In this document: one piece after another, positions 13,850 through 36,422 of the stretch
Position numbering within the stretch: the stretch's first letter is position 1
Layout: each line of letters starts with the position of its first letter
Virus record (IMG/VR): IMGVR_UViG_3300037840_000148
Location: 1-64,000 of that record
Source of the DNA: a virus
Reading direction: 5' to 3' (one strand)
DNA length: 64,000 nucleotides
Notes under the pieces: model-generated
Told to the model about the DNA's origin: nothing
The model's input: only the letters and a program-made list of their open reading frames with translations
The model's database searches: none
Position numbers and translations under genes: made by a program

Positions 13850-13856
13850 AGTAAAA

Positions 13857-16018: not shown

Positions 16019-18028
16019 ATGAAAAGTTTGAGAGCCGCTGTACTTTCTTTAATTCTGCCGATTTTACTCCTAGCTGCACCTACCATTTTTGCACAAAACC
16101 CCACCCAACAAGTCTCAACAGGCACGATAACCGCTGTTAGTACTGGCTGCACGTTAGTCAATACTGCGGGCTGCGTAGTTCTTCCTCTCCCTAATAATAA
16201 TCGTATGGCTGTCGCTGTTACAGTCACGGGAACGTTCAGCGGGACTTTGAATTTCATTGGAACTAATGCCACGTTGCCTTTTGCTACTGCTTTGGCAATG
16301 ACTCCGTTGGCTGGTGGAAGCACGGTTATCACGGCGACTGTGGCAGGTACTTGGAATAACGCCAGCATTGGTGGTTTGACTATCGTCGGGGTATATGCAT
16401 CTGCACTGGCTTCAGGAACGCCGACAGTCACCATTACTTCTTCAACTACGTCCGGTTCTTCGACAGGTGGTGGTGCTCTGCAGTTTCAAAACGCCGGGGC
16501 CGGATTAGGGTCTGCTGGGACTTTTAATTGCAGCACGAATTTGACTTGCACTATCACTGGCGGCGTCTTAACTATTGTTTCTAGTAGTAGCGGCACCACG
16601 ACCAACCAGGTTCTTAACGGTGTGCCGGTTAATACGAACGGCACATCTACGGCTTTGAACTCTGTTGTTTGTACACCGCCCACGGCAAATGGCCAATATC
16701 CGTTTCTTTACAACATTACCGCGAGCGCGACAGCGCAGCCAACCTGCCCACTTCTCGGCCTCTCTGCGGATCAGGCGGCGGGAGCAGCGGTTCTTTATAG
16801 CGACAACGGAAGCGTCATGTACAATCCGGCGTCTGCGCTGTCCCTGCCGAACACGGCATCCCTCGGCAATCCGAATTTCTATACAGTATCGCAGCAAAAC
16901 GCAAATGCCGTAGTGGTGACGCCCGCGAGCCCATTTAATATCGCGCTGGATGGCGGTGCGGCTGGAACCAGCCAAGCCCCTGCTACACTGCCGTATCACA
17001 CGCGATGCGGCTGGATGATAGACCAAGTAGCTTCGACCCAATGGGACATCGACTGTTGGAACGTGTACGGCTTCTTTGGCGGGATAGCGGTTCCGACATC
17101 GGCAACTGGATTGGCAACAAATTCTTCAGGTGGTTTGGTTCAACAGACCGGAGCGAATATCAGTTCTATCGTTCAAGGCTTGACCGGCTGCAACACGGCA
17201 ACCTACACGTACACCCCGCAGGCGAATGATTGTGTAGCTCCATCTGGCGGCGCAGCGTTCTCTGCCATCACTGGAGGGACGAATACGACGGCGGCAATGG
17301 TTCTTGGCTCTGGATCATCGTTGGCATTGAGCGGGACTGGCGCTGTAAACTTGAGTGCAGGTGGCGTTGGTGGCCTCGTTCTTCCAGCGATCACCAGCAA
17401 CACCGGCGCAGTTACCGGAGAACTATACTCCTATACCACAGGCGGTAATACTTGCCTCTTGGCCCCTCAAACGGCGATTGGATTTTGGTGTCTAGCGGTT
17501 GTTGGTGGTTCTGGAAGCACGAACACTGTTTGCGTTAATCAAGTTATTACTGCGCTATATTCGTATGCATCACCGACCTGTACTTCTCTCAGCGATGTCC
17601 TGACTGTTGCCAATGCCTATACAAACGCAACTACTACACCATCTAGCGTTGTAGGGCTAACGGCGGCTCTTTCCGCGAATACAGCCTATGCGATTTCCTG
17701 TCATATCGTTTTTCAAGGTTCGGCAACGACAACCGGATTATTGCTGTCAAGCACAGGGCCAGCCTCGCCAACAAAAGTAACCGCCAGCCTTCGTGCAACG
17801 ACTACAACCGGAGCGGCGGCAGTAACGTGGGCTGGCGCTTCGGATGGAACGACATTTGCGTTTTCTCTGGGACCAACGACCTTAGTTACGACCGGAGCCG
17901 ATCTTGGCGCTGATTTGAATGTAGGAATAATCAATGGCACGAACGCCGGGACATTTCAATTGCAAGCAGCAGCAGCCGGGACTGGAACGGTAACTATTCA
18001 ACCGGGTAGCACATGCACAAAGGAATAA
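16019..18028 (+). CDS. Secreted fibre/adhesin-like protein
   Basis: Signal peptide ending IFA-Q; very Thr/Gly/Ser-rich with many Cys. Confidence 0.75.
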   Translation: MKSLRAAVLSLILPILLLAAPTIFAQNPTQQVSTGTITAVSTGCTLVNTAGCVVLPLPNNNRMAVAVTVTGTFSGTLNFIGTNATLPFATALAMTPLAGGSTVITATVAGTWNNASIGGLTIVGVYASALASGTPTVTITSSTTSGSSTGGGALQFQNAGAGLGSAGTFNCSTNLTCTITGGVLTIVSSSSGTTTNQVLNGVPVNTNGTSTALNSVVCTPPTANGQYPFLYNITASATAQPTCPLLGLSADQAAGAAVLYSDNGSVMYNPASALSLPNTASLGNPNFYTVSQQNANAVVVTPASPFNIALDGGAAGTSQAPATLPYHTRCGWMIDQVASTQWDIDCWNVYGFFGGIAVPTSATGLATNSSGGLVQQTGANISSIVQGLTGCNTATYTYTPQANDCVAPSGGAAFSAITGGTNTTAAMVLGSGSSLALSGTGAVNLSAGGVGGLVLPAITSNTGAVTGELYSYTTGGNTCLLAPQTAIGFWCLAVVGGSGSTNTVCVNQVITALYSYASPTCTSLSDVLTVANAYTNATTTPSSVVGLTAALSANTAYAISCHIVFQGSATTTGLLLSSTGPASPTKVTASLRATTTTGAAAVTWAGASDGTTFAFSLGPTTLVTTGADLGADLNVGIINGTNAGTFQLQAAAAGTGTVTIQPGSTCTKE

Positions 18029-21000
18029 AGTATATTTTTCTCCTGATTGTCTTACTGATCCCAAGCCATGCATGGGCGACCTTCAGTGTCGTGCAGTCCG
18101 TGTTTAACAATTCCTGCGGCGCTGTGACGAGTTGCAGCATCACGGTATCAGCGATTGGGGCCGGGCATCTTGGAGTTGTACTCATACACAATGGAAACAC
18201 GTCAACTCTTTCGAGTGTCACCGCAGCGGGAGAAACATTTTCCTTGCTCGTGGCCGGAGGAACAAGTTGCCACTTTCAAGGCGGCGGCAATACAACCGAC
18301 ATGGGATGCGCCTACACTCTCAAAACTGTTGGAGGCGCTATTACCGTCACCTGCAATTGGAGTGGGACGACGGGCGCATCGAACACAAGTTGTGGATTTT
18401 ATGAGATCGCCTACACCACGAATTGCGGGGCAGAGCCAAGTATATTCCTAGAAAGCAACGTCACCAATGGGCAGGACACTTCCGCATCCACGAATCTCCT
18501 GGGAGTTGACTTCACTGCAAGCTACCCGAAATTTATAAACGGATCAAACGATATAATCTTCCAGTTGACGAACGTCTCCACCGGAACAGTTTCATCCATA
18601 AACACATCGTTCGTGTTGGACAACAACACCGGGCAGGTAGCTGACGCGCATCGACTGAATACGTTCGACATGACTGTGCCGACTTGGACGAACAGCGTAT
18701 CCGCGACTGCACTAGTCTCGGCTATTTCGTTTGGCGAGAACTTCTGCTCGCCTCTGACGACATTCCCAAACTCTCCAACGGGACTGTCAGCTATATATTC
18801 AGGGGCGCAAGGTTCTAGCGGAACGCAAACGCTTGCTATCACCTCCGCTGGCCTGTTCGAGTTGGTGTTCGACAACGCGGACAATTGGGGAATCGACGGA
18901 TGGTACGATCTCGTCAATGATCCTACACTGACTACGAACCTTCTCAGTCCGGCCTGTCCGGTTGGAACTGGAAATGCCTGCACCCTGCCTGGGAGCTTGA
19001 ATTCCGCAGAGCCGGGGCTGTTTCAGCGAACTTATTATGACTTTGGTGATGTGAAGCAGTATGGGAAACCATCCCATGCTTATTTCCCCAATATGTCGCG
19101 CTCATTGAATGTGCTCGAATACAACCCCAGCCGGATAGTGGTTGAAACCAAGTCGATGCCCGCAGCCACAGCATCCACGATATTCAACAATCTAACAGGA
19201 ACGACACGGTATTACATCTATCCGAACGGGCAGATTTACGTTCACCACGTAGCCACCGTAACGAACGCTGCCACGATAGCCACAACCGGAACGCCAATTT
19301 TCAGCGATGTCACTCTGGAAGACCCTACTCAATTGGGAACCACGCCGCCAGATTCGATTGGCTGGATACGTGCAACAGCAAGCGGCAATCCTTGGAGCGG
19401 AAGTGGACCTGTTGACCCCTATATCTTTGCCTATTGGGGACCGGGAACGACTGGGACATATCAGTTTTACACGAAGGCCAGCATCATGCTCGTTCGTAGT
19501 CCAAACAATCTCTACGATAATTCGCAAATCATCCATAGCTGGCAGTCGGGAACTGGATACGGTGTAGTGCGCTGGGGATGGAGTACAAATAACGCAATCA
19601 TCGCATTAGGGGCTGGCGGAACTGAAACCGAGGACATGCTGATCCAGCTTGGCACACAAGGTAGCACGGTGCTTCCCAACATCACATCGAGCACAGTGGC
19701 GGGACCAATCGCAACGGCCTACATCAATAATCCAACTCCGCCTCCAGTTCAAGACGTGTCACCGTCAGTGAATGTAAATACCACTTCTCAATTCACGACG
19801 AATGATTCTGGCGGTACGTACGCCTGTGCAAACACATCCAACGGCGGGACTTGTCTAGGCAGCGTCAACTCCAGCACGGGACTCTATACAGCTCCAGCAA
19901 GTTTGATCGCTCCGCAATCGCTCGGCGGGTATCCATTGCGGCCCAATGATGATGTATTCAATGTGAACATTTCAGGGCTGTCTGCGGCATCAAATTCGGC
20001 GACGATTATGGCGGCGGTAGGAAGCGTACCTGTAAACTTTTTGCCATCATTTCCAATCAACTACGTCACTCCATCGACCACCACAACCTCAATGGTGTTC
20101 AAGAGCACGCCAAATAATAATGGGACTTTCCAGACTCCAGTATGGCCTCTAGCAAACGTGGAAAACGGTTGGTGGGATTCGCTCGTGGGAAACACTACGA
20201 GCGACCATCACATCCGAATGATTGATACGACCACCGGGAACTTAACCGAGATTTATCAGTGGTTCGCGCAGGCTCCCGTACCAAGCTGCACGGTCAATGG
20301 ATCGAATTCAGCAACCTGTACGATCACCTCTACAAATACCTCGGCTGGATTCGTGCGGGCGGCTGCGCTTGGAAAGTCGGTTTTGCTGACAGGATGGACG
20401 AGCGGTGATACCTACCTTAACGGTACATTCACGCTAACTTCCGCAACTTCTACATCGATCACATTCAATATTTCGCATGCGACGGCATCAACGACCACGA
20501 GCGGTTCTGCTTCGCTCATAACGTCTTGCGTGTTGGCGACCTGCAACGCGGTCTCTGGAATGCAATATCTCAACACTGACTACGGATTGCCTGTTAATGG
20601 CTCTGTTGACGCTGCCGGTCTTCCACTTTCTCCACTTACCTTAAATGCCCAGGAAGTAGTGAATGCGGTAGCGAACGGCACGGCCATTACTCACGCGCTA
20701 CGAATGACACTCCAAAATGGATTCATCTGCGGGTCAAGCACGGCTAGCGCGTGTCCTGTGGGCTCCGTGAGTAATGCCGCAGGTACAAGACATATCTGGC
20801 CCGCGACATCGGAAGCCTTCGCTGGCGGTGGTATCGTTCCCTATGGTACGAGATTCCGCCTGAAATCGGCTTTCAACATCTCTAGTTTCTCTGCGGGCGC
20901 ACAAGTCCTATTAACGCAAATGAAAAATTATGGTCTCATCCTCGCTGACGGTGGAGGGGGATGGCAAATCACTTCTGACTTCGACAACCTTCCCGCTTCA

Positions 21001-21984
21001 GCCGCCGCCGTGATGCAAGAAATCAACAATGCCAATATCGCCACGTCAAATTGGGAAGTCGTGGACGAATCGAGTTTGATGGAGACGACGCTATCCGGCG
21101 CAACAACAACCGGGGAGATTGTCACCTACACACAATCAAGCGGATCGGCCAGCGCGAATGTCGGTTTGATGGGCACGGCGGTAAATGTTGGAACGCAGCA
21201 GTTTTACATAATGGCAGGGACTCCAGCGCAGCAGCTTCCTTATTATTCAAATGGCGCGGTGACCTGCACGATGTCTCCTACGGTCGGCTCGATCACATCT
21301 GGATGTCTCTACACGCCCCCTGGATCGGAAGCGTCCGTTACAACTACCACGGTGACGGTGACCAGCAACGCAAACGGCTCGGTAAAGGCCCAGATGACGG
21401 TATACGTGACCCCAGCGGTAATTCGGCTTCTGCAAGCTACCTCTGACTACACAGACTCTTTGACCCACGTTTGGTACAGCAGTAATCACTATGGCGTCGG
21501 CATGTCGAATGTCCCTTCGTGGCCGGGATGCTGCAATAACAATTCCTCGATCACTGGAACTGACAAGCAACTATTTTGGAATCACCTTTTGAATACGGCT
21601 GGTACACGAAACGATTACAAGATGGACATTCACCTCCCAAACGGTGTTTATCAGATCGTGTTCAATAACGGTACTTATCTTACGCTTGGGCAAGATGTTC
21701 GCAATTTCTATGTGCAAGGGGCACTGGCGGCAACCATAGATTCAGTGGCCGTCGCGGGAACTAACGCACAGTGGTTTCAGACATTCAGCGCTACCGTAAT
21801 CAACAACGTGCTATCGTTTTACAACACAGGAATTGGCCAGCAGGCCAAGGATAGTGGGGACGTTTCTTCAATTTCCATTAGTCAGACATCCTCGAACATT
21901 CCAACAGCCCCAATCAAGGCAGGCGTGCTCTTATCGGAGAAACAAGCACCAGATAATTGGATATTGACACAATCAGGAAATTAA
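18013..21984 (+). CDS. Secreted multi-domain adhesin-like protein (Ig-like repeats, C-terminal malectin-like domain)
   Basis: Signal peptide ending AWA-T; GS....GLYTAP Ig-like repeats; YTDS...W..., LPNG.Y.I.F, R.F.VQG C-terminal pattern. Confidence 0.72.
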   Translation: MHKGIKYIFLLIVLLIPSHAWATFSVVQSVFNNSCGAVTSCSITVSAIGAGHLGVVLIHNGNTSTLSSVTAAGETFSLLVAGGTSCHFQGGGNTTDMGCAYTLKTVGGAITVTCNWSGTTGASNTSCGFYEIAYTTNCGAEPSIFLESNVTNGQDTSASTNLLGVDFTASYPKFINGSNDIIFQLTNVSTGTVSSINTSFVLDNNTGQVADAHRLNTFDMTVPTWTNSVSATALVSAISFGENFCSPLTTFPNSPTGLSAIYSGAQGSSGTQTLAITSAGLFELVFDNADNWGIDGWYDLVNDPTLTTNLLSPACPVGTGNACTLPGSLNSAEPGLFQRTYYDFGDVKQYGKPSHAYFPNMSRSLNVLEYNPSRIVVETKSMPAATASTIFNNLTGTTRYYIYPNGQIYVHHVATVTNAATIATTGTPIFSDVTLEDPTQLGTTPPDSIGWIRATASGNPWSGSGPVDPYIFAYWGPGTTGTYQFYTKASIMLVRSPNNLYDNSQIIHSWQSGTGYGVVRWGWSTNNAIIALGAGGTETEDMLIQLGTQGSTVLPNITSSTVAGPIATAYINNPTPPPVQDVSPSVNVNTTSQFTTNDSGGTYACANTSNGGTCLGSVNSSTGLYTAPASLIAPQSLGGYPLRPNDDVFNVNISGLSAASNSATIMAAVGSVPVNFLPSFPINYVTPSTTTTSMVFKSTPNNNGTFQTPVWPLANVENGWWDSLVGNTTSDHHIRMIDTTTGNLTEIYQWFAQAPVPSCTVNGSNSATCTITSTNTSAGFVRAAALGKSVLLTGWTSGDTYLNGTFTLTSATSTSITFNISHATASTTTSGSASLITSCVLATCNAVSGMQYLNTDYGLPVNGSVDAAGLPLSPLTLNAQEVVNAVANGTAITHALRMTLQNGFICGSSTASACPVGSVSNAAGTRHIWPATSEAFAGGGIVPYGTRFRLKSAFNISSFSAGAQVLLTQMKNYGLILADGGGGWQITSDFDNLPASAAAVMQEINNANIATSNWEVVDESSLMETTLSGATTTGEIVTYTQSSGSASANVGLMGTAVNVGTQQFYIMAGTPAQQLPYYSNGAVTCTMSPTVGSITSGCLYTPPGSEASVTTTTVTVTSNANGSVKAQMTVYVTPAVIRLLQATSDYTDSLTHVWYSSNHYGVGMSNVPSWPGCCNNNSSITGTDKQLFWNHLLNTAGTRNDYKMDIHLPNGVYQIVFNNGTYLTLGQDVRNFYVQGALAATIDSVAVAGTNAQWFQTFSATVINNVLSFYNTGIGQQAKDSGDVSSISISQTSSNIPTAPIKAGVLLSEKQAPDNWILTQSGN

Positions 21985-21999
21985 ATAACCAGGAGAAAC

Positions 22000-22374
22000 A
22001 TGAAAAAATTCTTAGCAGCATTTCTATTCGTCGCTTTTTCAGCCGTCGCAGCATCTGCGCAATCGGCAATTCCGCCTGCCGGAACCCCGCACAACGTCCA
22101 AGCTACATGGACAGCCCCGACAACACCGGGTGGCTCAGGAGTAATTGCAGGATACAACATCTATCGAGCGGGTGTTTCTTACACGAAGATTAATACCGCG
22201 TTGAATACCACGACGTCTTTTGTAGACACGACGGTAGTTTCCGGCGCGACGTATAGCTATTGTGTCACGACCGTTGACTCAAAGAATGAAGAGTCCGCGT
22301 GTTCGCTTCCGGCATCGACGACAATTCCGGCCAACCCGAATGGGCCTACAACTATTATCATCGTAACTCAGTAA
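22000..22374 (+). CDS. Secreted single fibronectin type III domain protein
   Basis: Signal peptide ending ASA-Q; V..TW.AP, GYNIYR, F.DTTV..G.TY.Y.V..VD...ES..S. Confidence 0.85.
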   Translation: MKKFLAAFLFVAFSAVAASAQSAIPPAGTPHNVQATWTAPTTPGGSGVIAGYNIYRAGVSYTKINTALNTTTSFVDTTVVSGATYSYCVTTVDSKNEESACSLPASTTIPANPNGPTTIIIVTQ

Positions 22375-22381
22375 GGATCAA

Positions 22382-23461
22382 ATGGCAAATTCGCAAAGCA
22401 CGGTCACGCTCCAGCAGGAATGTGACATACTCCAAGGATATGGGGACCTGGAGCCGATTCTAAATGTTGCGGGACAAACTTCGACTGCAGTTTTGACGGC
22501 CGCCAACAATGTAATGAGCGCCATACATGCGGTAGCATTCCCGCATAAATGGGCAGAGGCTAATGCTCCTCTTTTCTATACAAATTCTTTGCAGCAAGAT
22601 TATGCCGCGGTATATCCGAACGGCCAGTCGTTAACTAATTTGTCCTGGCTTGAACGTGGAATTTGTATTGATATAAACAATATTGCACAGCCAAAACCAT
22701 ATCGTTTGATTGAAACAGGCAGAGAGCTTAGTCAGGCAACCGGTAGTGTATTCGATGCTAGCAACAGTAATAGTCCGGCATTTCTAGTCAACTGGATTCC
22801 TAATAATGTTTTGTATTATGGAATATGGGGTCAAGCCAATACTGGAACATCGACCTTAGGAAATAATCCTGTCGCGGGCTCTGTTTATACGCCGCTTGTA
22901 TCGCTTGGTGGCAGCATGCCTTTGAATCCAATCATGCAGATCCAAGACGCTAACGGAAATCTGTTAGTGTTGACTGGGTTTGGGACCGAGGGTTCAGCGG
23001 CCCCAGTTCTTCCAGTCAATTCTACTCCCGGTACAACGGTTTCAGGAAGCGGGGCTACAACGGTGTGGACGGTTGTAGATCCTTATGGGGTCGGTTTTAG
23101 AATTCTTCCTGTTCCCGTGCAAAGTGGAGTTACGTGGCAGTTTAATCTTGTTTATCAAATGAAGCCAGTAAGGTTCACCAGTCTTGGTCAAACTCTCGCT
23201 CCATTTCCAGATGAATTTGAACCGCATTTTCAGATGGGCTTGATTGCGCAACTTTATCGTTTTTCTCCGATGAAAGCCGTGTACGAAAAATTTCCCGCAG
23301 CATGGCAATTGTGGTTGAAATCATTGCAAGAACTTCGGTCACGAGAAGATCGTGAAACTGAAGAAAATATTTTTGTCCCGGATCGGGGAATAATGGGAGG
23401 AACGGCTGGAAGAAATAAGTTTATGGGGCCAGCTTATCCGTTCAATTATCCGAGCAGATAA
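22382..23461 (+). CDS. Head-tail adaptor-like protein 1
   Basis: N-terminal AAN.V....PHKW and C-terminal PFPDEF...F helical motifs typical of adaptors; position. Confidence 0.6.
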   Translation: MANSQSTVTLQQECDILQGYGDLEPILNVAGQTSTAVLTAANNVMSAIHAVAFPHKWAEANAPLFYTNSLQQDYAAVYPNGQSLTNLSWLERGICIDINNIAQPKPYRLIETGRELSQATGSVFDASNSNSPAFLVNWIPNNVLYYGIWGQANTGTSTLGNNPVAGSVYTPLVSLGGSMPLNPIMQIQDANGNLLVLTGFGTEGSAAPVLPVNSTPGTTVSGSGATTVWTVVDPYGVGFRILPVPVQSGVTWQFNLVYQMKPVRFTSLGQTLAPFPDEFEPHFQMGLIAQLYRFSPMKAVYEKFPAAWQLWLKSLQELRSREDRETEENIFVPDRGIMGGTAGRNKFMGPAYPFNYPSR

Positions 23462-23502
23462 TCTTTATTATCAACAAGTTACAGACGTTTTAAGGAATAA
23501 AA

Positions 23503-24438
23503 TTGTCGAATACTATTTTTACAACAATTAATTTTGCCCAAGCCTTAATTAATTATGCTCCGTTGACTTATGGAATCGGGAGCGAGCCTGCGATCACGAT
23601 TGCTTCGATGATTCGTAACTCTTTTCTAAATAGCCCGTTAAGTTGGTCGTGGAACCGTTTTGAGGATAGTAGCACTACGATCACTTCGGCAAATACGGAT
23701 TATACAGTTAATTTAACAAATTTCGGTTGGCTTGAGCGCGTTGTATTAACGGACGGAAGCGGAAACACACAAGAAATTAAAGAGATTTATAACACGCTGT
23801 CCTTGGCAAAGAATAAAGTTTCGCAACGGCCTAGCGCTGTGTCTGTATTAATAAATACACCCGGCACGAGCGTAAAGATTCGTTTCAATTCTACGCCAGA
23901 TCAAAGCTACACAGCCACCTTAATTTACCAAGGTTTGGCGACTCAGTTCGGACCTTTTGTTATCAACTCATCGGCTAACGCGGCTGGTGGAAATACGGCA
24001 TATACCGGGATATTTACTCCGGCGTCATTTCCGACAGGGTCGACAGCCACAATCGCGGGATTCACGACCAACGCAGTTAATAACGGTACGTTTTTAGTTG
24101 TGTCTTGTACATCCACTATTTTGACGGTTGCAAATGCCTCGGGTATCGCCGAGACGCCCGCAAACGCCACAGCAATTAATGGGAGTTGGGCACCAATTCC
24201 TGATCAGTATAGTGATGTTTATACTTCACTCTTTTTATCTGAAGCGTTTCAGTCCGTTGGTTATGATGCCGAGGCGGCTAGATATCGTCAGCGCGGAGTC
24301 GCAGCAATGCTTGCGAAAGCCGAAGGCTTGACTCAAGCACAAATTAGCGCTTGGACTTTGCAGTGGTTACAGCGAGATACAATGGCTCAAGCCAGTCAGT
24401 TAAGAACTGCCCAAGGAAATCAGGCCCGCGGAATTTAA
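23503..24438 (+). CDS. Head-tail adaptor-like protein 2 with inserted beta domain
   Basis: PLSWSWN, RP......IR...TPDQ.Y, PIPDQY motifs; TTG start with AAGGA RBS. Confidence 0.6.
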   Translation: MSNTIFTTINFAQALINYAPLTYGIGSEPAITIASMIRNSFLNSPLSWSWNRFEDSSTTITSANTDYTVNLTNFGWLERVVLTDGSGNTQEIKEIYNTLSLAKNKVSQRPSAVSVLINTPGTSVKIRFNSTPDQSYTATLIYQGLATQFGPFVINSSANAAGGNTAYTGIFTPASFPTGSTATIAGFTTNAVNNGTFLVVSCTSTILTVANASGIAETPANATAINGSWAPIPDQYSDVYTSLFLSEAFQSVGYDAEAARYRQRGVAAMLAKAEGLTQAQISAWTLQWLQRDTMAQASQLRTAQGNQARGI

Positions 24439-24446
24439 GGATATAA

Positions 24447-27400: not shown

Positions 27401-28160
27401 TTTTATGGACGCGACAGGCCAACTCCAGGTAGTGTCTCCGACACTGTCTGTCACCGCGGCCGGTTTCCCGATTGCTGATCAACTCATGAAATTCAACCCG
27501 AAGACGGCATATATTACGTTCGCTGATTTGCCGAACGACACCGGGATTTATATCGGAACAGGCAGCACGACCTATAACGGCGCTACAGGTTGGTTCAGGA
27601 TGGCCCCCCGTCAGATCCCCGGTGGTATTAACGGTCCCGAGCCTGTCTGGAGCCCTTTTGCCGCGATTACGAACGGCTGCCAGCTATTACAGGCTGTCGA
27701 AACGACGCCAGGTATTAAAAAGCTGCTTGTCGGCCCTGCGTTAGCCGGGGAAGAGATTTTAAAGCGTGACCCGACCGTCTATACAGACGACGGCACGCCT
27801 TTTGATGCCAACTTCCAGTTAGGTTCGTTGTGGCTTGTCCGTCGCGGCGAGTTGGCTATCCTGAAGTTCCTTGAGTCGGATTTCTCGATGAATACCAACC
27901 CGACAGTTTCATATCTTTTGAATGAAATTTCTGGGACATTTAATAGCTTCGTGACATCACAGGCGTTATTTGATCCGCCGGTTCTATACGGCAAAATCAA
28001 AGCCCCGACATCCTACGTCCCGTTGCGTTTTTATTTCTCATCGACCGGTTCGTTGGCTTTGGCTGTTCATATGCAAGTCGGATTTGATTTTGGAACTACT
28101 GCGAATGCCGACGAGTGTTTCAATTTCACGATTTATGGCGCAATAAGTAAGGGACACTAA
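24447..28160 (+). CDS. Tail tubular/nozzle-like protein with inserted carbohydrate-binding-like repeats
   Basis: QNVEI...NTI.RR.G N-terminus; ERIWG...V.FS C-terminal propeller-like part; repeated TTTDG.V.W modules. Confidence 0.65.
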   Translation: MDLLAGAGARSIKEIPFAPLFIEDLWPGLYTNRSALHDPSGLYERRYMGGRPGSLIGGQNVEITVRNTIGRRFGLTPFSIGTYPTQPIRAFSFEDVTGLIRVLIDTGTTGLLTVTSAANASGITTVYTGVFPAGAVNAYAGMYFQIQGFTTNASNNGVFLCTASTATTLTLQNPQGIAETNPAQAISSGAVYYDPQIGVPLLLKGKQPNAQQSYFVAVAGICYVGDGVETWTYVPYNVNGTVWNWGIQPPTSAPSVNVVQSGSASVLWTASTVWSTMGLIYDSASGTILQLHSVNASNANTTQFGSTGPGVPTGGWNTSFNGTTTDGSVTWQNNGIITSWSANTRFASVFAAYNNLPEVIYDPVTKAIYVNVSTATVGGYTGYYTGSQVPNFKAGNGQTTVDNQCLWQYVGTPGVLPTWAASTTYPTFLVSRGNPPVGNYQAATVTEPLSLLFGLPTSQPVYWQVVKVGGTSGSSGVAPFGSTVVLAGSIIGDNGDTLWLSLGSGTWAATTGYSGWTAPGSIFSALKDSNGNFQVCTTTGVSGGTQPTWGSTYGATTTDGTVVWTCVGTSMGWTSNTKWYLPSTGFYPPQTSGTSSASYGGASIIDSNGDIEFIINSGLGGASHPTWNSVGGYTADSGTALVLTQVTVGATTATYTGTITGGAANGLVGKTFLIGGFTNAGNNALINVTASTGSTLVCSLTSQVNETNPGTAHQNAIWYNLEVKPAQSLGWTKGYSYAYSYKSRNLLDFYSVPSGSPLAIPTPPGQSSPLPAPTGSLLGAVSTASPAFTVTGGNAGAVNTVSGLGSTDPQVDTIVIWRSADGGGSSNMFELTEIPAPQPVNGVARPWSFQDFLPDLPTSVFPGLNELISAPIDEVNNPPLATFLPMEYNFERIWGATGQQVLFSGGPDTLVGNPQAAFNPADEFPFLSNVLRIVKTTQGSVVYTANSLEIILGGPATASFFSVTLAPGIGLGNYNALDVYMGEQFFMDATGQLQVVSPTLSVTAAGFPIADQLMKFNPKTAYITFADLPNDTGIYIGTGSTTYNGATGWFRMAPRQIPGGINGPEPVWSPFAAITNGCQLLQAVETTPGIKKLLVGPALAGEEILKRDPTVYTDDGTPFDANFQLGSLWLVRRGELAILKFLESDFSMNTNPTVSYLLNEISGTFNSFVTSQALFDPPVLYGKIKAPTSYVPLRFYFSSTGSLALAVHMQVGFDFGTTANADECFNFTIYGAISKGH

Positions 28161-28169
28161 GGGACGCTA

Positions 28170-29825
28170 ATGGCCGATCAACCAAACAATTTGATAGCCG
28201 CCGACGATCCTGCGCTAGATGAAGTGAAGTTTATCCAACGAGAGCCGATATTAGCTAGCCAACCGCCCGGGACAGCGCCGTCAGTAAACGACCCTTTTCA
28301 AGGCGCTATCATCAGCCAGATTGGTTTGCAGACAGATACCGCGGATTCTCAATTAGCCGGGCATCTTCCGATTTATCGTTTGATGCCGTCATCGGTCGCT
28401 GGTTCCGCTACGGCCGTATCAGCAGCTACGTCGACATTATTAAAGAACCCCGAGTTTGTCACAGCACAAGCGCAAATAGAACAAAATACAGTCGCGATTG
28501 CGAACATCCAAACCCAGAATATATTTCTCGGTGCATGGAGCGCAACGACGGCATACGTTGCTGGAAATCAGGTCACGGAAGCCGGTGGTTATTACATCTG
28601 TATTTTAGCAAATATCAACCAGATGCCGCCGAACGTGACGTATTGGCAGCTTGTTTCGACAACAAATACGACTGTCTTTCTTGGCGCTTATAATGGCGCT
28701 ACAGCTTATGTCCCTGGTAACCAAGTTACCTATCAAGGTTCGTATTGGATTTGTATTGCGAACTCGACGGGTAACGCGCCATCAACTACATCGACTTTCT
28801 GGACGTTGGTCGGGACGTCTGTAATCTTGATTGGCGCATGGAATTCAGGTACTGCGTATGTTCAAGGAAATGAAGTTACTTTCAGCGGGAATGTCTATCA
28901 GTGCATCTTAGCGAATACAAACCAAACGCCGCCGAATGTGACGTATTGGCTTTTGATTGGTCCGGCAAGTCTAGACAATGTTCCTGACGGTACGACTAGA
29001 TTTGCGGCTACCGGTTCGACGCTTTCGTATGTCCCGACGTCTAATCCACTAACTGCATCCGCCGGTGTATCAAACGCAACTATTACGGTTTTATCGTTTA
29101 CGATGCGAACGAGCAGTAAGGGTGACATCTCTATTACCGGCAGTTCTATAACGTTGTTGTCTTATTCAACTTTATACTATATTTATTATGACGACCCAAC
29201 TTTAGCGGGTGGTTCGGTAACGTTTGTTCCTACAACTACTAAAGCTACAGCAATTCAAGGCGCGGGAAGATTTTTTGTCGGATCGATTGTTACTCCGGCA
29301 GCGACCGCGCCTAATACAACGGGCAATAACGACGGCGGTGTCGGAGCGCAAGGCGGAAGCACCAGCGTATTTTTATTTGGTGCTTTTACTAATACCGGCG
29401 CAACGATTGATCCGACTTTATCAAATCCACAAAATGCGTTTGATGGCGATCTGACAACTTTTGCGTCCGTCGTTCAAACAAATTCCGCGTCAACGACCGT
29501 AAATGGCGGGATGATTCTTCAAGCCGCCACCCCGACATCAGCTCCTTGGTCAAGTTTGATTTTATACGTCTTGACGTCGGTTACAGGAACTAGTGGAGTA
29601 CATAATAGCGCTACAGTCGATATATCTCTCGACGGCGGTAATTCATATACAACTTTATTTACTGTCACGGATAGTAATCGAGCACAAACAACCGATCAAA
29701 TGACTTTATCGAATAACCAAAATCTTGCTCTTGTGCGAGTTAGATGTCGAACAGCCGGAGACGGCGTAGCCACAGGCGCGGTCACACTCAATATTTATGA
29801 AGCATATGTAGAAGGTATAATCTAA
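28170..29825 (+). CDS. Tail fibre-like protein with three CBM5/12-like repeats
   Basis: 3x GAW...TAYV.GN.VT..G..Y.CI.AN....P......W. Confidence 0.7.
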   Translation: MADQPNNLIAADDPALDEVKFIQREPILASQPPGTAPSVNDPFQGAIISQIGLQTDTADSQLAGHLPIYRLMPSSVAGSATAVSAATSTLLKNPEFVTAQAQIEQNTVAIANIQTQNIFLGAWSATTAYVAGNQVTEAGGYYICILANINQMPPNVTYWQLVSTTNTTVFLGAYNGATAYVPGNQVTYQGSYWICIANSTGNAPSTTSTFWTLVGTSVILIGAWNSGTAYVQGNEVTFSGNVYQCILANTNQTPPNVTYWLLIGPASLDNVPDGTTRFAATGSTLSYVPTSNPLTASAGVSNATITVLSFTMRTSSKGDISITGSSITLLSYSTLYYIYYDDPTLAGGSVTFVPTTTKATAIQGAGRFFVGSIVTPAATAPNTTGNNDGGVGAQGGSTSVFLFGAFTNTGATIDPTLSNPQNAFDGDLTTFASVVQTNSASTTVNGGMILQAATPTSAPWSSLILYVLTSVTGTSGVHNSATVDISLDGGNSYTTLFTVTDSNRAQTTDQMTLSNNQNLALVRVRCRTAGDGVATGAVTLNIYEAYVEGII

Positions 29826-30115
29826 TGATTGAAAAATCGATTGATAAAGAGTACGGGACGGTTAATTCTTCCGCAGAGATTTTTTATACTGATAACGGTC
29901 AAGCCGTAATACATATCACGTCTACGCTCGGTGAAGCACGACACGAACACCGCATAACTGTCGGTTCGGAAGACGGCCGAGATATGGTTGGGTCGTTATC
30001 AGAAGATGAATTGAAAGCTTCATTACAGAAACATCTTGATGAAAAGCGACAACAAGCCGCCGATATCTTAAACGGTCGTGCAAAGGTAGCTAAAGTCGCC
30101 TTGGGGTTGAATTAA
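29825..30115 (+). CDS. Hypothetical protein (fibre chaperone-like position)
   Basis: 96 aa, TAATG coupling. Confidence 0.6.
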   Translation: MIEKSIDKEYGTVNSSAEIFYTDNGQAVIHITSTLGEARHEHRITVGSEDGRDMVGSLSEDELKASLQKHLDEKRQQAADILNGRAKVAKVALGLN

Positions 30116-30591: not shown

Positions 30592-30601
30592 CATAGATAA
30601 T

Positions 30602-33600
30602 ATGAAGAAATTATTTTCAGTTTTATTTTTTACTGTCTTGTTTGCTATCAATGTTTCTGCGCAGCAAAAAGTAAATGGCGGTTTGTCTATCCGAGGTCCA
30701 ATTCCTTATAGAGATATCACGGCATATATGCCTGTCGGTGGATGCGACAACGCAAATCTATCCGGTGGCCAAGAGCACGGAACGATTAACGCATCATCGA
30801 ATTCTCTGACTTTGGTTGGTGGAGGCGGGTCATACTACGCTAATGGATGCGGGGTGTTCGTAGCCGGGGCAGGGCCTCTTTCGACGCTTTCGACTCCCAC
30901 GCAAGGGGCTGCTCCTAATCCGACCACTCCCGTAGGAATGACTTCCGGTTCCACCACCGTGCATTACAAAGTAGCTGCGATTGACCCGCAATACGGCACT
31001 TCAGCAGCGAGCGCGGCATTGACGATCACCACAGCGCCATCGACACGTACGCCGATTGATTACGTCGGAATCTACTGGACGGCGGTCAACGGTGCGGTCG
31101 GCTATCTCGTTTATACAGATAATAATGGTGGAGGAACTTACGTCCCTCTTGGATATTCTTTTGATTGTACTGCATTTTCTGCTGGTGGAATCTGCGGCGC
31201 GATTGATAAAGGAGTCGAAACGAACAGTTGGGTTGGCGGGACTGCGGCGATGTGGCCGGGAGCGCCTCCAGGATCGGTGACAGGACAAGCTCTAATCACC
31301 ACGATAACATCAGGTGGCGGCACTGGAGCTTTGACCCTTGCGGCGACAGCCACAACATCTGTAACCCAAGCATTTACGTGGCCGGATGAGTCAATGTTTA
31401 TCGGGCAGGCCATTTCGGATGCGAACAGCGATGGCGACAATTCGCACCACAATAAAGGGACGGTATTTATTCCGAAGGGGGTTTGGTATACCGACACAAT
31501 CCCGTATCCCGGCGGCTATACAGAAGGAGTCCAGATAAATCTGTCTGGAGAAGTTGTTTTGTTTGGATTGCCTGTATACGGCGGCCTTGCTAGTGGAGGA
31601 ACCGGAAGAGTGTCAATCAGCGGGCACGATTGTGGGGATTACGGCGCAAATAATTACGTGATGAACGGTTGCACGATTGCGGGTTCTACATATCTCGGAG
31701 CTCTTTTTGTCACACAAGGCTCAAACAGCGGATTGAATTTAGATCATGTATCGGTGTCCCCATTTCAGGGTGGAATTGTCCAAGATTCGCAAGGCGACGT
31801 GACCACAAAGGACGTAAATTTCGTCTTTTCGACTTCCAGCACCGGACTCATGCTCCAAATTGATAATAACGTGTATTTCAGCGTCTATGACCACAGCAAC
31901 TGGAACGATGGCGCTAACAGCACCGCAAATAATATCCCGATGATCTGGTTTTTGGGACTGACGAGTACGGCTCACAGCAGCGATTTCATATTCAACAACA
32001 ACACATTCGTTGCTCATACGGTCAGAATGGATCAAGCCTTTCCGGGCGGGGGCGGTCCTTCATCTCCAGTAGTTTTTAGCGGCCTTACATCTATAGAGGA
32101 TAATTGGGATCCGGGATTTGTGACTACAGCAACCAACAATTATGTTCAGTCGTGGACAATCGACAATGTGAACACCGGAGATGCGAATGCTGTCCAATCG
32201 CTCATGTACGGTTATGCCGGTTACAGCAACACGATAGCTGGTAACCAGATATTTGTGCATGGGCAGACCTTTGGTTTCTCCAGCCTCATTAGCAGTTCAG
32301 CGCAAACGGTAGCAGACACAAAATGCTTTTGGGTTGTCGATAGTGAAAACCAGCCAGGAGCAGGCTTTGAAAGCTTAGGATACTGGGGAAATATTTATAA
32401 TGGAACGTATACAGGTTGCGATTATGGAATCACGTTATTGGGGCCGGATGTTCAGACTACCGAAGTATTGACCTCGGGAGGAAACTCCGCTGGCGGAACT
32501 GCCGGAGAACAGATGATTGGCCACATCATCCGGCGTCCATCAGTAACGACCAGCGCAAGTTCAGGATCGCTCTCAGCGGCGACCTACTACATCAAAGTCA
32601 CCTTCAAAGATGTGGCTGGACGTGAGGGCGGGGCAAGCCCGGAAGTATCGCAGGTAGTAGGCGCATCGGGTTCGGTGGTGGTTACGGCAACCGGAACCAT
32701 TTATTTTCCGGCAAGCTGTAATGTTTATTACGGGACATCTGCGGGCGGAGAAGCTAATTATTTCAATTCGACTACCGTTACGAATGGAACCTGTACATAT
32801 ACATTAACAACAACTTCCGGGGCGTCGTCAGGAACGCCTCCCCCAGTCGGAAATGCCATGAATACGTGGTTGACGGAAGAAAATAATGCCAACTCGTGTC
32901 TATATTGCGGTTTTAGCGGCGGATTAGGGACGGGATTTATCGGGTTTAATCTCAATGCCGCACAATACGCCGCGGTTCCTTCTGGCGTTCAGTTTCCGTT
33001 CAATGGCGGCGTGCATACATATAAATTCTTTTCAGGTTCCGAAACAACCGCACCGACAGGGGCTTCCGGAATAGACCAATTGTGGGCGGATTCTACCGCA
33101 CACGGATGGAAGATTAATCCAAACAATTCCGGTGCTCAGTTACTTGCTGGTTTCGGATCGACTCCGACAAACGGCGATTGTGCAAATATTTCCGTTGTAG
33201 GCGGCGTTGTTAGCTTAGGTGATGCCGGGGCTGCTTGCGGAGCGAGCGGCGGCGGTCTGAATACCAATATGAACAACATGGCAAATCCGACTGCGATGAG
33301 CCAGAGCCTTATTCCTGGTGCTGCGAATAGTATAGCATTAGGTTCACAGGCGTTGCCTTTTACAAATGGGTTTTTCGGGACGGTTGCAAATCAAAGCGGA
33401 TCATTCAATACTGCTAATTTGACAGCCAATCGAGTTATCAACTGGCCGGACGCAACGTCCACGACAGTCCGAGCTTGTGCGTCTGTATCAAATCAGTTCT
33501 TAACTGCGATTGCGGTAGCAACCGGCATTTGCAGTCAAGCACAACCGACGTTAGCAAATATCGCCGCCGGAGCTTCGCCTAGTGGGTTGTTTGATTTCAG

Positions 33601-34429
33601 CGGTTCGACGATGAAAATCCCGCAAGCAGCCGGTTTATTTGCCGGATCGGCAAGTAACATCGGTTTAGATACCACGGCGCATTCCGTCCATCTGTACATC
33701 AATAATGCTGATAGTATTGCGTCTGCATTTGCGTCTGCTCCTACCGGCTCGTTGTGTGTCCAGACTAGCGGAACGACAGGATTACTTGTCGAGGCTTCCG
33801 GAGTTTGCGGGACGGTCACGCCGTCAAGTACGAATACCTTTACTAACAAGACGTTAAACGCAGAAAGCACTGGTAATTCTTTGAGCGAACCTATCCGGGC
33901 ATTTTTCCCGGCCGGTGGTTGTAATAATTCGACGGCCGGTAACGGTTGGGATATCGGCGTGACAAATACGCCGACGCCGCAATGCGCCGGTACGACGGTC
34001 AGAAAAGGAACGCTGGCATTTGCGCAAGGAAACGTCGGGTATATAAATTTCCATCTCCCGAGTGATTGGAATTCAAGTGCGTCGACGGATATCGAAATTT
34101 GTTTCACAACGACGGATACAACAAACGGACATGTCACGAGCTTTAATATCCAGACGGGCTTTAATGCCACAAACGGCACCGTGACAGACGATCCTACGTT
34201 GAATACGTTGCAGGCTTTGAGCGTCACAATCGGAGCAAGTCAAGTGTCTGGTGGCGAGTTATGCGGTAAATTGACTGGTATGACCATGACGGGTTCCGCT
34301 GCGGATTATAACTTTGAAATTGTCGTGACAAGAAATAACTCAGGAACGGATACAAATACAGACACCGCGGTCGCTGTTAAGTCGGCTGAATTGATTTATG
34401 GGGTTACTAAGAATGCCACGAATCGTTAA
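30602..34429 (+). CDS. Secreted large adhesin/tailspike-like protein (beta-helix region)
   Basis: Signal peptide ending VSA-Q; AI.DA....GTVFIPKG.W beta-helix cap; Gly/Thr/Ser/Cys-rich. Confidence 0.72.
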   Translation: MKKLFSVLFFTVLFAINVSAQQKVNGGLSIRGPIPYRDITAYMPVGGCDNANLSGGQEHGTINASSNSLTLVGGGGSYYANGCGVFVAGAGPLSTLSTPTQGAAPNPTTPVGMTSGSTTVHYKVAAIDPQYGTSAASAALTITTAPSTRTPIDYVGIYWTAVNGAVGYLVYTDNNGGGTYVPLGYSFDCTAFSAGGICGAIDKGVETNSWVGGTAAMWPGAPPGSVTGQALITTITSGGGTGALTLAATATTSVTQAFTWPDESMFIGQAISDANSDGDNSHHNKGTVFIPKGVWYTDTIPYPGGYTEGVQINLSGEVVLFGLPVYGGLASGGTGRVSISGHDCGDYGANNYVMNGCTIAGSTYLGALFVTQGSNSGLNLDHVSVSPFQGGIVQDSQGDVTTKDVNFVFSTSSTGLMLQIDNNVYFSVYDHSNWNDGANSTANNIPMIWFLGLTSTAHSSDFIFNNNTFVAHTVRMDQAFPGGGGPSSPVVFSGLTSIEDNWDPGFVTTATNNYVQSWTIDNVNTGDANAVQSLMYGYAGYSNTIAGNQIFVHGQTFGFSSLISSSAQTVADTKCFWVVDSENQPGAGFESLGYWGNIYNGTYTGCDYGITLLGPDVQTTEVLTSGGNSAGGTAGEQMIGHIIRRPSVTTSASSGSLSAATYYIKVTFKDVAGREGGASPEVSQVVGASGSVVVTATGTIYFPASCNVYYGTSAGGEANYFNSTTVTNGTCTYTLTTTSGASSGTPPPVGNAMNTWLTEENNANSCLYCGFSGGLGTGFIGFNLNAAQYAAVPSGVQFPFNGGVHTYKFFSGSETTAPTGASGIDQLWADSTAHGWKINPNNSGAQLLAGFGSTPTNGDCANISVVGGVVSLGDAGAACGASGGGLNTNMNNMANPTAMSQSLIPGAANSIALGSQALPFTNGFFGTVANQSGSFNTANLTANRVINWPDATSTTVRACASVSNQFLTAIAVATGICSQAQPTLANIAAGASPSGLFDFSGSTMKIPQAAGLFAGSASNIGLDTTAHSVHLYINNADSIASAFASAPTGSLCVQTSGTTGLLVEASGVCGTVTPSSTNTFTNKTLNAESTGNSLSEPIRAFFPAGGCNNSTAGNGWDIGVTNTPTPQCAGTTVRKGTLAFAQGNVGYINFHLPSDWNSSASTDIEICFTTTDTTNGHVTSFNIQTGFNATNGTVTDDPTLNTLQALSVTIGASQVSGGELCGKLTGMTMTGSAADYNFEIVVTRNNSGTDTNTDTAVAVKSAELIYGVTKNATNR

Positions 34430-36422
34430 GATTTTATTTGTTTTATCTTGTTTGTTATGTTTATTGGTTCCTATAAAAGGCCGTGCGCAAGCGTGGTCTG
34501 GACTTTTAAACCCGACTTTTGGTTCCGGGGCGTGTAATCCGGCGTCAGTATCATCCCCACAAAAGTGTGCTATTGATTGGTCGACTGCCGGAGTAATTGG
34601 GGGCATTCCCTCTGGTTCGTGGACACAATCCGGCTCAACTATAACAGCAACAAGTGGCGACAGAACCGCGACAATCCAAGCGGCATTAAATTCTTGTGGG
34701 ACTAATCATTATATTTTACTCGGGCCTGGCGTTTTTAGTGTTACTCATTTGACGGTTCCATCTAATTGTGAGTTGCGTGGTGCGGGTACGTTGACATCTT
34801 CAGGAACTATCGTCAGTGGTACGGCTACTAGTGGTTCGTTGATATCTATAGGAAGCGGCGGTGGCCCAAATTATACATCACCGGCATCAACAACAATTAC
34901 TTCTGGTGCAACTGCAGGCTCGACAAGTATTGGAGTATCTAGTGCTTCAGGAATTTCGACGGGAACGTTACTCGCAATTTCTGAAATTAATGATCCTGTT
35001 TATGTAACTATCCACGTAATTCAAGGTAATTGCACATTTTGTGACGGCACTGGTGATGGGGGAGTTAGGGCAAGAGGACAGGTTGTTCGGGTTACGAATG
35101 TTTCCGGTACAACGCTAACGATTTCTCCCGGACTTTATACTAATTACGGCAGCGCTACTGGAACTGGTCCGGCGTTGGCTTATTATTATCAACCGGGCGG
35201 TCAGAATGCAGGGGTTTATCTTTTGCAAACATATGCTAATGGGACGGGTTATGCCCAGACGTTTAATTTAAGCGCATGCTATGATTGTTGGATTAAAGGG
35301 GTATTTGATAATTACTCGGATGGCGATCACGTAGATATCTATTGGAGTTTACATTATGAAATTCGAGACAGCTATTTTTCTAATGCTTATTTGCACACTT
35401 CTGGCTCCGCCGATTCGGATATAGATTGTATCAATAAATCATCCGATGGTTTAATTGAAAACAATATTTTAGAACGACTACATGTCGGGATTATGTGGGA
35501 ATGGGGTTGTTCCGGCAATGTATTTGGTTATAATTATAGTTATGGCAATTTCGATCAAGGCAACAATACTGGAAATCCGCCCCCAGTAATCTTGGCTTCC
35601 TTCGGGATGCACGGCGCTCATACACAATTTAATTTATTGGAAGGTAATGTCGGCAACACAATGATTGAAGATAGTTTTTGGGGCACCGGATCAAACGACA
35701 CGACGTTCCGTAATCAGTTTCGCGGGACAGACACGCTGGCTCAACCGCTTATCGCCGGTCGTCAGACAGTCAATTGGTCTAGTACTCAATTTGCTACACA
35801 GCAAATGAACGCCCAAGTTATATCATATCCACACACAAACAACAACTCTATTGGAAACATTTTTGGATCTGCGGATGCCGTAACTGCCGCTACTTCCGGG
35901 TTGTATAATGGTGGGTTGTCGCCGTTTACATCCACCGTGATTCCTTCATCAACCCGAAATTATCAATATTGGTTTTATGCCACGAGTATTGGATATGATA
36001 CCGGCTCAGATACCAACGGTAGTGGAGTAACTACTTTTGCAAGTGGGCCGTCTAACACAGCAGGATATTGGGTTGGGTTGGCATCCGGGACATTTTTCCA
36101 ACACGGTAATTTCGATATAGCCAGTAATTCAATTATTTGGAACGGTGCTGTAACACACACATTACCCACCTCATTTTATCGATCAACCCGACCGTCGTGG
36201 TTTGGTAGCGTTCCGTGGCCCGCAATGGGTCCGGACGTTACTGGTGGTAGCGTAGATACGTCGACATTAGCTGGCCACGTTAATGCTATCCCGGCAGAAG
36301 CTTGCTACAACTCTGAATCTAGAGATGCGACCGGCATTAAACTTTTTGATCCGACAGTTTGTTATTATGGATCTACACCACCAAATCCGCCGTCCGGCCT
36401 TCACGTAATTATAGAAAATTAA
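34413..36422 (+). CDS. Secreted right-handed beta-helix (pectin lyase-like) protein
   Basis: Signal peptide ending GRA-Q; DWS.AGV.GGIP, D.TA.IQAALN.C...ILLGPG.F, L.ENN, NL.EGN repeats. Confidence 0.78.
   Translation: MPRIVKILFVLSCLLCLLVPIKGRAQAWSGLLNPTFGSGACNPASVSSPQKCAIDWSTAGVIGGIPSGSWTQSGSTITATSGDRTATIQAALNSCGTNHYILLGPGVFSVTHLTVPSNCELRGAGTLTSSGTIVSGTATSGSLISIGSGGGPNYTSPASTTITSGATAGSTSIGVSSASGISTGTLLAISEINDPVYVTIHVIQGNCTFCDGTGDGGVRARGQVVRVTNVSGTTLTISPGLYTNYGSATGTGPALAYYYQPGGQNAGVYLLQTYANGTGYAQTFNLSACYDCWIKGVFDNYSDGDHVDIYWSLHYEIRDSYFSNAYLHTSGSADSDIDCINKSSDGLIENNILERLHVGIMWEWGCSGNVFGYNYSYGNFDQGNNTGNPPPVILASFGMHGAHTQFNLLEGNVGNTMIEDSFWGTGSNDTTFRNQFRGTDTLAQPLIAGRQTVNWSSTQFATQQMNAQVISYPHTNNNSIGNIFGSADAVTAATSGLYNGGLSPFTSTVIPSSTRNYQYWFYATSIGYDTGSDTNGSGVTTFASGPSNTAGYWVGLASGTFFQHGNFDIASNSIIWNGAVTHTLPTSFYRSTRPSWFGSVPWPAMGPDVTGGSVDTSTLAGHVNAIPAEACYNSESRDATGIKLFDPTVCYYGSTPPNPPSGLHVIIEN

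Follow-up and report, generated by a model that had tools for sequence, protein, structure and literature searches.

Sec-signal-bearing, cysteine-rich proteins of fibre, spike and polysaccharide-locus type in the late operon of a podovirus-type soil phage

Introduction

Textbooks place the morphogenesis of tailed phages entirely in the cytoplasm. Tail fibres, tailspikes and secreted polysaccharide-locus enzymes are all known kinds of protein; the new part described here is their Sec-signal-bearing phage version, found in the late operon of IMG/VR virus record IMGVR_UViG_3300037840_000148. The analysed stretch (the window) is the first 64 kb (64,000 nucleotides) of this complete 110,831-bp soil virus record, which has direct terminal repeats. 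Five of its open reading frames (ORFs), named after their start positions in the window, encode the proteins p16019, p18013, p22000, p30602 and p34413. Each begins with a Sec-type signal peptide and together they are encoded among genes for the virus particle. Literature searches returned no account of tail fibres or spikes of tailed phages that carry Sec signals.

Several described systems resemble individual members of this set. The podovirus tailspike depolymerases (P22 gp9, Sf6, HK620, CBA120 TSP2 and Fri1 gp49) have the same right-handed parallel β-helix as p30602, and the pectate-lyase fold PF12708 is found in homologues of p34413; the genes of both proteins lie in a fibre slot. Known tailspikes, however, have no signal, few or no disulfides and an N-terminal particle-binding domain, whereas the present proteins combine a cleavable-type Sec signal with 12–22 cysteines and have no recognisable anchor. 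Phage fibres with a C1q/TNF knob (collagen-repeat and lambda Stf-type fibres and the short fibre of cyanophage A-1(L)) superpose on the knob of p16019 (8ke9, Z 8.3), but p16019 adds a signal, 16 cysteines and a putative disulfide pair in the knob and is without collagen or coiled-coil repeats. Exported morons in the tail regions of temperate phages, such as lambda Lom and Bor and Gifsy SodC, are likewise signal-bearing, non-essential and located among tail genes. They are small and often foreign in composition, with a promoter and terminator of their own, whereas the five genes described here are 0.4–4 kb long, coupled to their neighbours and phage-like in composition.

Two non-phage systems are also relevant. 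The MAT fibres of Bdellovibrio bacteriovorus are built from a signal, a β-rich domain, a trimeric fibre and a swappable tip (PMC10769870). The order of parts is that of p16019 (signal, β-rich domain of ~115–130 aa, long fibre, exchangeable TNF-like disulfide tip), and modular tip swapping occurs both in MATs and in the knob family. MATs are chromosomally encoded and displayed on the predator's own surface, whereas p16019 belongs to a phage late operon and its likeness rests on layout and tip fold; with this qualification, the MAT family is the closest described counterpart of p16019-type proteins. Furthermore, the glycanases and epimerases of exopolysaccharide loci (PslG, AlgL, AlgG and ExoK) are functional analogues of p34413 and p18013, whose cellular homologues are signal-bearing and encoded in Wzx/Wzy-type clusters. 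The likeness lies in presumed function, and the phage copies differ in being phage-borne and late-expressed.

Signal peptides of the five proteins

The five ORFs lie on the plus strand (Table 1), and each encodes a Sec signal of n-h-c architecture, as a preliminary description of this DNA had proposed. Signals were called with a crude rule-based test and by eye. All five contain a basic n-region, a hydrophobic core of 10–15 residues and a small-x-small site. Cleavage is predicted before Gln in four of them, also in line with the preliminary description, whereas in p18013 the site falls between AWA and TF. The segments preceding the predicted sites, with the two residues that follow, are MKSLRAAVLSLILPILLLAAPTIFA and QN in p16019, MHKGIKYIFLLIVLLIPSHAWA and TF in p18013, MKKFLAAFLFVAFSAVAASA and QS in p22000, MKKLFSVLFFTVLFAINVSA and QQ in p30602, and MPRIVKILFVLSCLLCLLVPIKGRA and QA in p34413. 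Among 199 ORFs of at least 300 aa from 11 phage genomes or contigs (G000 and G005–G014), nine pass the crude test, and the window supplies four of these nine.

The signals are conserved in the families of the large proteins, with positive calls for 99 of 120 members for p34413, 60 of 88 for p30602, 105 of 149 for p16019 and 36 of 49 for p18013; the members that fail are mostly partial entries. The residue at position +1 is most often Gln in three of these four families. The sole homologues recovered for p22000 are signal-less. True starts downstream of the signals, raised earlier as an objection, are ruled out: homologues align from residues 1–17, those of p16019, p18013 and p30602 from inside the signal, and the remaining two ORFs have no usable alternative start (none ahead of codon 68 in 22000, none from codon 18 to 113 in 34413). 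One gene caller places the start of p16019 at M63 (a 607-aa version, P0210), which is ruled out by homologues aligning from residue 10.

Other features listed in the preliminary description hold in part. Serine, threonine and glycine together make up 33–38% of the four large proteins, and the five genes are indeed interleaved with signal-less genes (22382, 23503, 24447, 28170, 29825 and 30115, with 0–8 cysteines). The labels 'adaptor' and 'nozzle' given to such neighbours are not confirmable by sequence and rest on position and on homology to structural genes of the cultured phage Tunturi 3. The term 'adhesin-like' suits p16019 and p22000 but not p30602 and p34413, which are depolymerase-like, nor p18013, which is multi-domain and glycan-binding-like. 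No BLAST similarity is found among the five, so that paralogy is ruled out.

Cysteines and their link to the signal

The mature proteins contain many cysteines (Table 1), again as previously described. All counts are even, and the residues mostly form close sequential pairs. Cysteine content is 1.6–2.4% in the five, compared with a median of 0.65% in 17 other plus-strand ORFs at 6–45 kb (Mann–Whitney p = 0.002).

In three homologue pairs, comparison of sequences suggests that the signal and the cysteine pairs travel together. The 94-aa FN3 homologues of p22000 in the sister phages G011 and G013 start exactly at the FN3 domain, without a signal, and their two cysteine positions are occupied by Val and His. 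Similarly, a signal-less protein of sister phage G007, 59% identical to p16019 aa 26–143, starts at the mature N-terminus and has lost Cys52. The third case is an 873-aa IMG/VR protein that is signal-less and cysteine-free; it is 41% identical to p18013 aa 272–576 and is without the Cys315–Cys323 loop. On its contig (L152:4111-6845), signal-bearing ORFs of 609 and 302 aa lie shortly upstream.

This association is not absolute. Two giants of the knob family, L165:5174-10393 (1739 aa, 38 Cys) and L173:6344-10417 (1357 aa, 22 Cys), are signal-less, and many cysteines alone are therefore no proof of export. One possibility is that both giants are anchored fibres of the virion whose cysteines oxidise extracellularly; they have in common an N-terminus of the type 'MQA.PNLDFT..'. 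Such proteins would fit an explanation without export, in which the hydrophobic N-termini of the five are never removed and serve, for example, in assembly or as membrane tethers, and the proteins are assembled in the cytoplasm like ordinary fibres, their cysteines oxidising only after release. We consider this very improbable, as the canonical n-h-c architecture with a small-x-small site followed by Gln is identical to that of clearly secreted cellular homologues, and signal and cysteine pairs are gained or lost together in the three homologue pairs. Genuine export of the five proteins, with oxidative folding into disulfide-bonded forms, is by contrast likely. A phage-encoded Dsb protein found no support, as no small signal-bearing ORF has a CxxC motif.

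p34413, p18013 and p22000 and the host polysaccharide loci

The family of p34413 has more than 700 homologues, nearly all starting with '...AHAQ(A/L)WSG'. The pectate-lyase fold PF12708 is found on homologues (E 5e-10 for the cellular copy L005), whereas p34413 itself gives no Pfam match at E 0.01. Cellular copies with 61–62% identity over residues 1–668 occur in four metagenome-assembled genomes (MAGs) of Acidobacteriaceae and Sulfotelmatobacter, next to genes for an asparagine-synthase-like protein, a Wzy_C protein, a Polysacc_synt_3 flippase and a GT4 glycosyltransferase. Alignment of the phage protein with the cellular enzyme begins at residue 1 and reveals no extra N-terminal module or anchor. 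p30602, the only one of the other genes searched for in these four MAGs, was not found there. In addition, a 2132-aa signal-bearing protein on one IMG/VR contig is a fusion with a p34413 module.

p18013 has a full-length cellular homologue (L146, 45% identity over aa 28–1289), which is surrounded by Bac_transf, GT2, Wzy_C, methyltransferase, GT1 and GT4 genes. Some homologues of p18013 carry He_PIG or Malectin Pfam domains. The p18013 profile matches PDB chain 9hhu over a 134-residue stretch (E 0.005), which we read as malectin-like from the Malectin domains of those homologues. An Atlas search gave no usable match for p18013. In view of their collinearity with cellular Wzx/Wzy-locus proteins, p34413 and p18013 appear by sequence to be whole-length versions of secreted host polysaccharide-locus proteins, to which no N-terminal module has been added. 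Recent capture from the host is ruled out by composition: GC content at third codon positions is 35% in the p34413 gene (the phage genome has 46% GC), against 55–60% GC in the host loci.

The small p22000 matches Pfam fn3 (E 5e-4) as well as Ig-type tail and Hoc-like PHROGs. At the C-termini of p22000 and p34413, a Pro-rich turn is followed by a short hydrophobic strand ('PNGPTTIIIVTQ' and 'PPNPPSGLHVIIEN'). The four large proteins themselves gave nothing in Pfam, PHROGs and NCBIfam, and PDB sequence searches returned nothing useful. No C-terminal sorting domain (PEP-CTERM, T9SS or other NCBIfam entries) was detected on any of the five at E 0.05, and no PEP motif was seen at their C-termini. 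Taken by type, p30602 and p34413 look like polysaccharide depolymerases and p18013 looks like a multi-domain glycan-binding protein.

Predicted structures of p16019 and p30602

In the AlphaFold2 (AF2) model, p16019 is composed of the signal (aa 1–25, with a helix at 2–19), a β-sandwich (aa 30–143) and a C-terminal knob (aa 520–669, pLDDT 88–95). The Ser/Thr/Gly/Ala-rich shaft at aa 145–430 was left unmodelled. The knob domain occupies the extreme C-terminus of more than 500 proteins of 144–1339 aa. Its best structural match is the PLTL lectin 9ib6 (Z 11.8, root mean square deviation (rmsd) 2.1 Å over 115 residues), a lectin with structures containing blood group B and Lewis b sugars (9ib7, 9ib9). 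Other matches include chlamydial Pgp3, C1q domains and the Bdellovibrio MAT tip Bd2734 (Z 7.8), and Foldseek matches the knob to Bd1399 (E 4e-4). The prediction for p16019 is a fibre of trimer type that ends in a TNF-like lectin knob. IMG/VR scans with the single sequences of p16019 and 24447 gave no match, and an Atlas search with p16019 returned sub-threshold viral fibre leads only.

The MAT layout of p16019 (signal, β-rich domain of ~115 aa, shaft and TNF-like tip resembling Bd2734; PMC10769870) would also suit a role at the cell surface. According to this explanation, the five proteins would be presented at the surface of the infected or lysogenic cell or close around it, p16019 acting as a MAT-type adhesive fibre while the others, together with a phage glycosyltransferase operon, remodel the polysaccharide of the cell itself and thereby block superinfection or change adhesion. 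An integrase-like gene at window 47571-48563 (minus strand) points in the same direction. Its tyrosine-integrase match is weak (Phage_integrase E 2.5e-5, below the Pfam cut-off, with a SAM-like N-domain), and judged by this match the phage may be temperate. We nevertheless regard such surface conversion as improbable, because the genes lie inside the late operon without promoters of their own, no outer-membrane anchor or sorting signal was found, and the integrase match falls below the cut-off.

p30602 contains a right-handed β-helix at aa ~260–615 (AF2), and aa ~750–1085 were left unmodelled. Fold matches of the helix include AlgE4 epimerase and alginate lyase. Residues 30–850 are ~60% identical to signal-bearing proteins of ~1145 aa from phage-derived clusters in Acidobacteriota genomes, and residues 810–1275 reach 72% identity with the C-terminal ends of further signal-bearing proteins. 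The N-terminal part is FN3-like, and no particle-binding anchor is recognised in it, though fibre N-termini vary within this clade. A tblastn search of cultured phages found no match to p30602, and neither p30602 nor p16019 was found in nine related phage records.

Variable slots in the late operon

Comparison with the sister genomes G005–G013 and with Tunturi 3 resolves the region into a conserved core and two variable slots (Table 1). In 14 relatives, slot 1 measures 0–2.6 kb; it is empty in six and contains a signal-bearing gene in only one. Slot 2 is filled in relatives by unrelated, signal-less, cysteine-poor genes. In the present genome, p30602 and p34413 follow the 1237-aa conserved tail protein 24447 in this fibre slot. 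All five genes are absent from the sisters G005–G013 and from Tunturi 3, whose slot 2 fibres lack signals. In the G007 record, a region upstream of the terminase (61129-68075; L102, L103) holds four signal-less, cysteine-poor fibre-like genes, including a twin of the p16019 N-domain.

The variability of the slots, together with the lack of any excess of promoter- or terminator-like sites, indicates that the five genes are accessory cargo, yet fully integrated into the late operon. A moron origin is ruled out: the genes have no promoters or terminators of their own, they are coupled, and their composition is not foreign.

Possible destinations after probable export

We tentatively favour the reading that the exported proteins are free accessory factors directed at envelope glycans, and this may be their destination. 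It is suggested by the collinearity of p34413 and p18013 with host proteins, by the dispensability of the slots and by the presence of a signal-less fibre in the same phage. Moreover, the phage exports other enzymes, namely a trypsin-like peptidase and an SLT lytic transglycosylase.

A number of observations weigh against free proteins and would accord with export followed by assembly. In that scheme, p16019 and p30602 at least, and perhaps all five, are virion appendages that fold with disulfides in the periplasm and dock on finished particles, either at the point where holin and endolysin action joins the compartments or once the particles have been released; we hold it to be quite possible. 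The p16019 knob has the fold of many phage tail-fibre tips (BFVD), with rmsd values of 2–3 Å (2.2–3.3 Å over ~150 columns). The β-helix of p30602 is of tailspike type, matching phage tailspikes (Fri1, Sf6, HK620, CBA120 and K2-2), alginate lyase and polygalacturonases at Z 16–19, with rmsd values of 3–4 Å over 255–300 residues for the tailspikes. The genes occupy head-decoration and fibre slots, and their translation is coupled to that of particle genes, the gaps being -17 to +15 nt. Promoter-like sites number 14 (25 expected) and terminator-like sites 10 (21 expected), which is no excess, and the composition of the five is phage-like and not host-like. The tight coupling and phage-like composition therefore mark them as long-resident late genes that are expressed during particle building. 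The N-domain of p16019 occurs without a signal in sister G007, where the protein starts exactly at the mature N-terminus. Finally, given that no NCBIfam sorting match was obtained, free proteins have no evident route across the outer membrane.

The occurrence of similar proteins elsewhere adds to this side. The cultured Acidobacteria podovirus Tunturi 1 (L153, PP887698, 10371-23028) has Sec-type signals at the N-termini of gp12, gp13, gp14, gp16 and gp17, which contain 2–32 cysteines; gp12 has 1190 aa and 20 Cys, and the annotated tail spike gp14 and annotated virion structural protein gp17 have 21 and 32 Cys. Every large spike-like protein encoded beyond the Tunturi 1 tail gene is signal-bearing and no large signal-less fibre is annotated, which hints that signal-bearing spike-like proteins can be receptor-binding parts. 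The Tunturi paper does not mention signal peptides and contains no proteomics. On IMG/VR contigs, 19 of 34 knob proteins have signals, often beside other signal-bearing, cysteine-rich ORFs. Cellular Acidobacteriota contain a phage-derived head–tail cluster, found in G015 (L126:1-20000) and in eight genomes of its family (L138–L145). It is composed of a large terminase (E 3e-21), a portal-position protein, a head-protein-like gene (70–93% identical between genomes), a signal-bearing spike-like protein and a virion structural protein of ~900 aa. The signal-bearing protein, thus located between the capsid and structural protein genes, is a relative of the ~1145-aa proteins that match p30602; it has 780–1200 aa, a conserved N-module and a variable C-part, and L126 holds the full-length match of G015. 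In one family, 36 of 61 genomes have this N-module, a tally that takes in the unpublished genomes G024, G037 and G049, none of which supplied a locus used here. The cluster may represent either a prophage of wide distribution or a particle locus that has been domesticated.

Against assembly stand the lack of a recognised virion-anchor domain in the five and the points that favour free proteins: the host-type collinearity of p34413 and p18013, the slots being dispensable (slot 1 is empty in six sisters), and the normal signal-less fibre with two CBM5/12 modules that this phage already encodes. In addition, a pathway of this kind for a tailed phage did not turn up in the literature searched. The preliminary description had offered two readings, disulfide-bonded fibres that fold in the periplasm and join the virion at or after lysis, or an appendage or coat on the infected cell. 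Disulfide folding outside the cytoplasm is supported by the parity and spacing of the cysteines and by the three signal-less homologues without the cysteine pairs, whereas the status of virion parts is one possibility beside the cell-surface reading and that of free exported enzymes and lectins.

As free accessory proteins, the five would be produced from the late operon along with the structural proteins, and the Sec machinery of the host would export them. Signal peptidase I would cleave them, four before Gln, and they would fold in the oxidising periplasm with many disulfides. Their target would be host envelope polysaccharide, addressed by the depolymerase-type p34413 and p30602, the malectin and Ig modules of p18013, the lectin knob of p16019 and the FN3 domain of p22000. 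The proteins would probably be held in the periplasm until lysis. Free or loosely bound, in the periplasm and, after lysis, outside, they could cut, bind or mask slime, capsule or O-antigen of the infected cell and its neighbours, which would aid escape and spread of the progeny and the avoidance of readsorption.

The phage, its late operon and its host

The late operon is of podovirus type and occupies the plus strand from 6.6 to 45 kb of the window (Table 1). The closest cultured relative is Tunturiibacter phage Tunturi 3, with 36% identity in the portal, 37% in the head protein and 35% in the 22382 homologue; Tunturi 3 is a podovirus of Acidobacteriota (PMC11924767). Portals of 50–94% identity are encoded on 80 IMG/VR contigs, several of which are genomes of 100–111 kb. 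For two cargo genes, the best cellular matches come from Acidobacteriaceae and Sulfotelmatobacter MAGs, and on this basis, together with the kinship to Tunturi 3, the host is very probably an acidobacterium.

Two side observations concern other genes. A papain-family protease is encoded at window 3216-4037 (plus strand). The major head protein ORF (window 12475-14645) ends at 272 aa, whereas relatives have 320–345 aa and align to residues 1–271 at 73–94% identity; ~1.2 kb separates this ORF from the next conserved gene. As read from the sequence, this arrangement would fit an interrupted, intron-type capsid gene.

Table 1 Genes, domains and slots in the window, with cysteine counts of mature proteins for the five signal-bearing proteins
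Feature	Position	Strand	Description
Trypsin-like peptidase	777..1565	+	With signal peptide; kept in sister phages
Large terminase	6649	+	Late operon
Portal	8625	+	Late operon
Major head protein	12475	+	Late operon
Slot 1	Between 15402 and 22382 homologues	+	Here 16019, 18013 and 22000 (6.4 kb)
p16019	16019..18028	+	669 aa, 16 Cys; signal peptide, β-sandwich, shaft, C-terminal TNF/C1q-like knob
p16019 knob domain	17576..18025	+	Near-invariant Cys pair C561/C666 in alignment
p18013	18013..21984	+	1323 aa, 22 Cys; signal, multi-domain secreted protein, malectin-like C-terminal part
p22000	22000..22374	+	124 aa, 2 Cys; signal and single FN3 domain
Conserved tail genes	22382, 23503, 24447	+	Signal-less; kept in all sister phages and Tunturi 3
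Core tail genes and fibre 28170, between slots	22382..29825	+	No signal
Slot 2	Between 24447 and 36438	+	Here 28170, two small ORFs, 30602 and 34413
Fibre with two CBM5/12 modules	28170	+	Signal-less; slot 2
p30602	30602..34429	+	1275 aa, 22 Cys; signal, FN3-like domain, β-helix, β-sandwich, C-terminal jelly-roll
p34413	34413..36422	+	669 aa, 12 Cys; signal and pectate-lyase-fold protein
Three large internal-protein-like genes	36438, 37264, 39690	+	Late operon
SLT lytic transglycosylase	50848..51348	-	With signal; likely Sec-exported endolysin

Implications

Sec signals on large fibre- and spike-type proteins of late operons recur in Tunturi 1, on many IMG/VR contigs and in phage-derived host clusters. 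Carried furthest, the assembly explanation would give phages of Acidobacteria a two-compartment assembly line, with heads and tails made in the cytoplasm and fibres and spikes passing through Sec and periplasmic disulfide formation to join the particles only at lysis; we rate this general scheme as possible but rather doubtful. In a bolder variant, suggested by analogy with the lectin that best matches the p16019 knob and has structures with blood group B and Lewis b sugars, soluble phage glycosyltransferases (GT6, GT11 and GDP-fucose genes at 58–64 kb) would decorate the particle with a blood-group-like glycan, to which the exported p16019 fibre would bind through its knob.

The recurrence of these signals means either that a late step of assembly spans the inner membrane and has so far escaped description, or that exported, glycan-targeting phage proteins form a large class that has been overlooked. 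Since Tunturi 1 and its host, Tunturiibacter psychrotolerans X5P2, are cultured, the question of destination is answerable at the bench. Either reading bears on host range in one of the most abundant soil phyla, on how phages cope with thick slime layers, and on the prediction of receptor-binding proteins from metagenomes.

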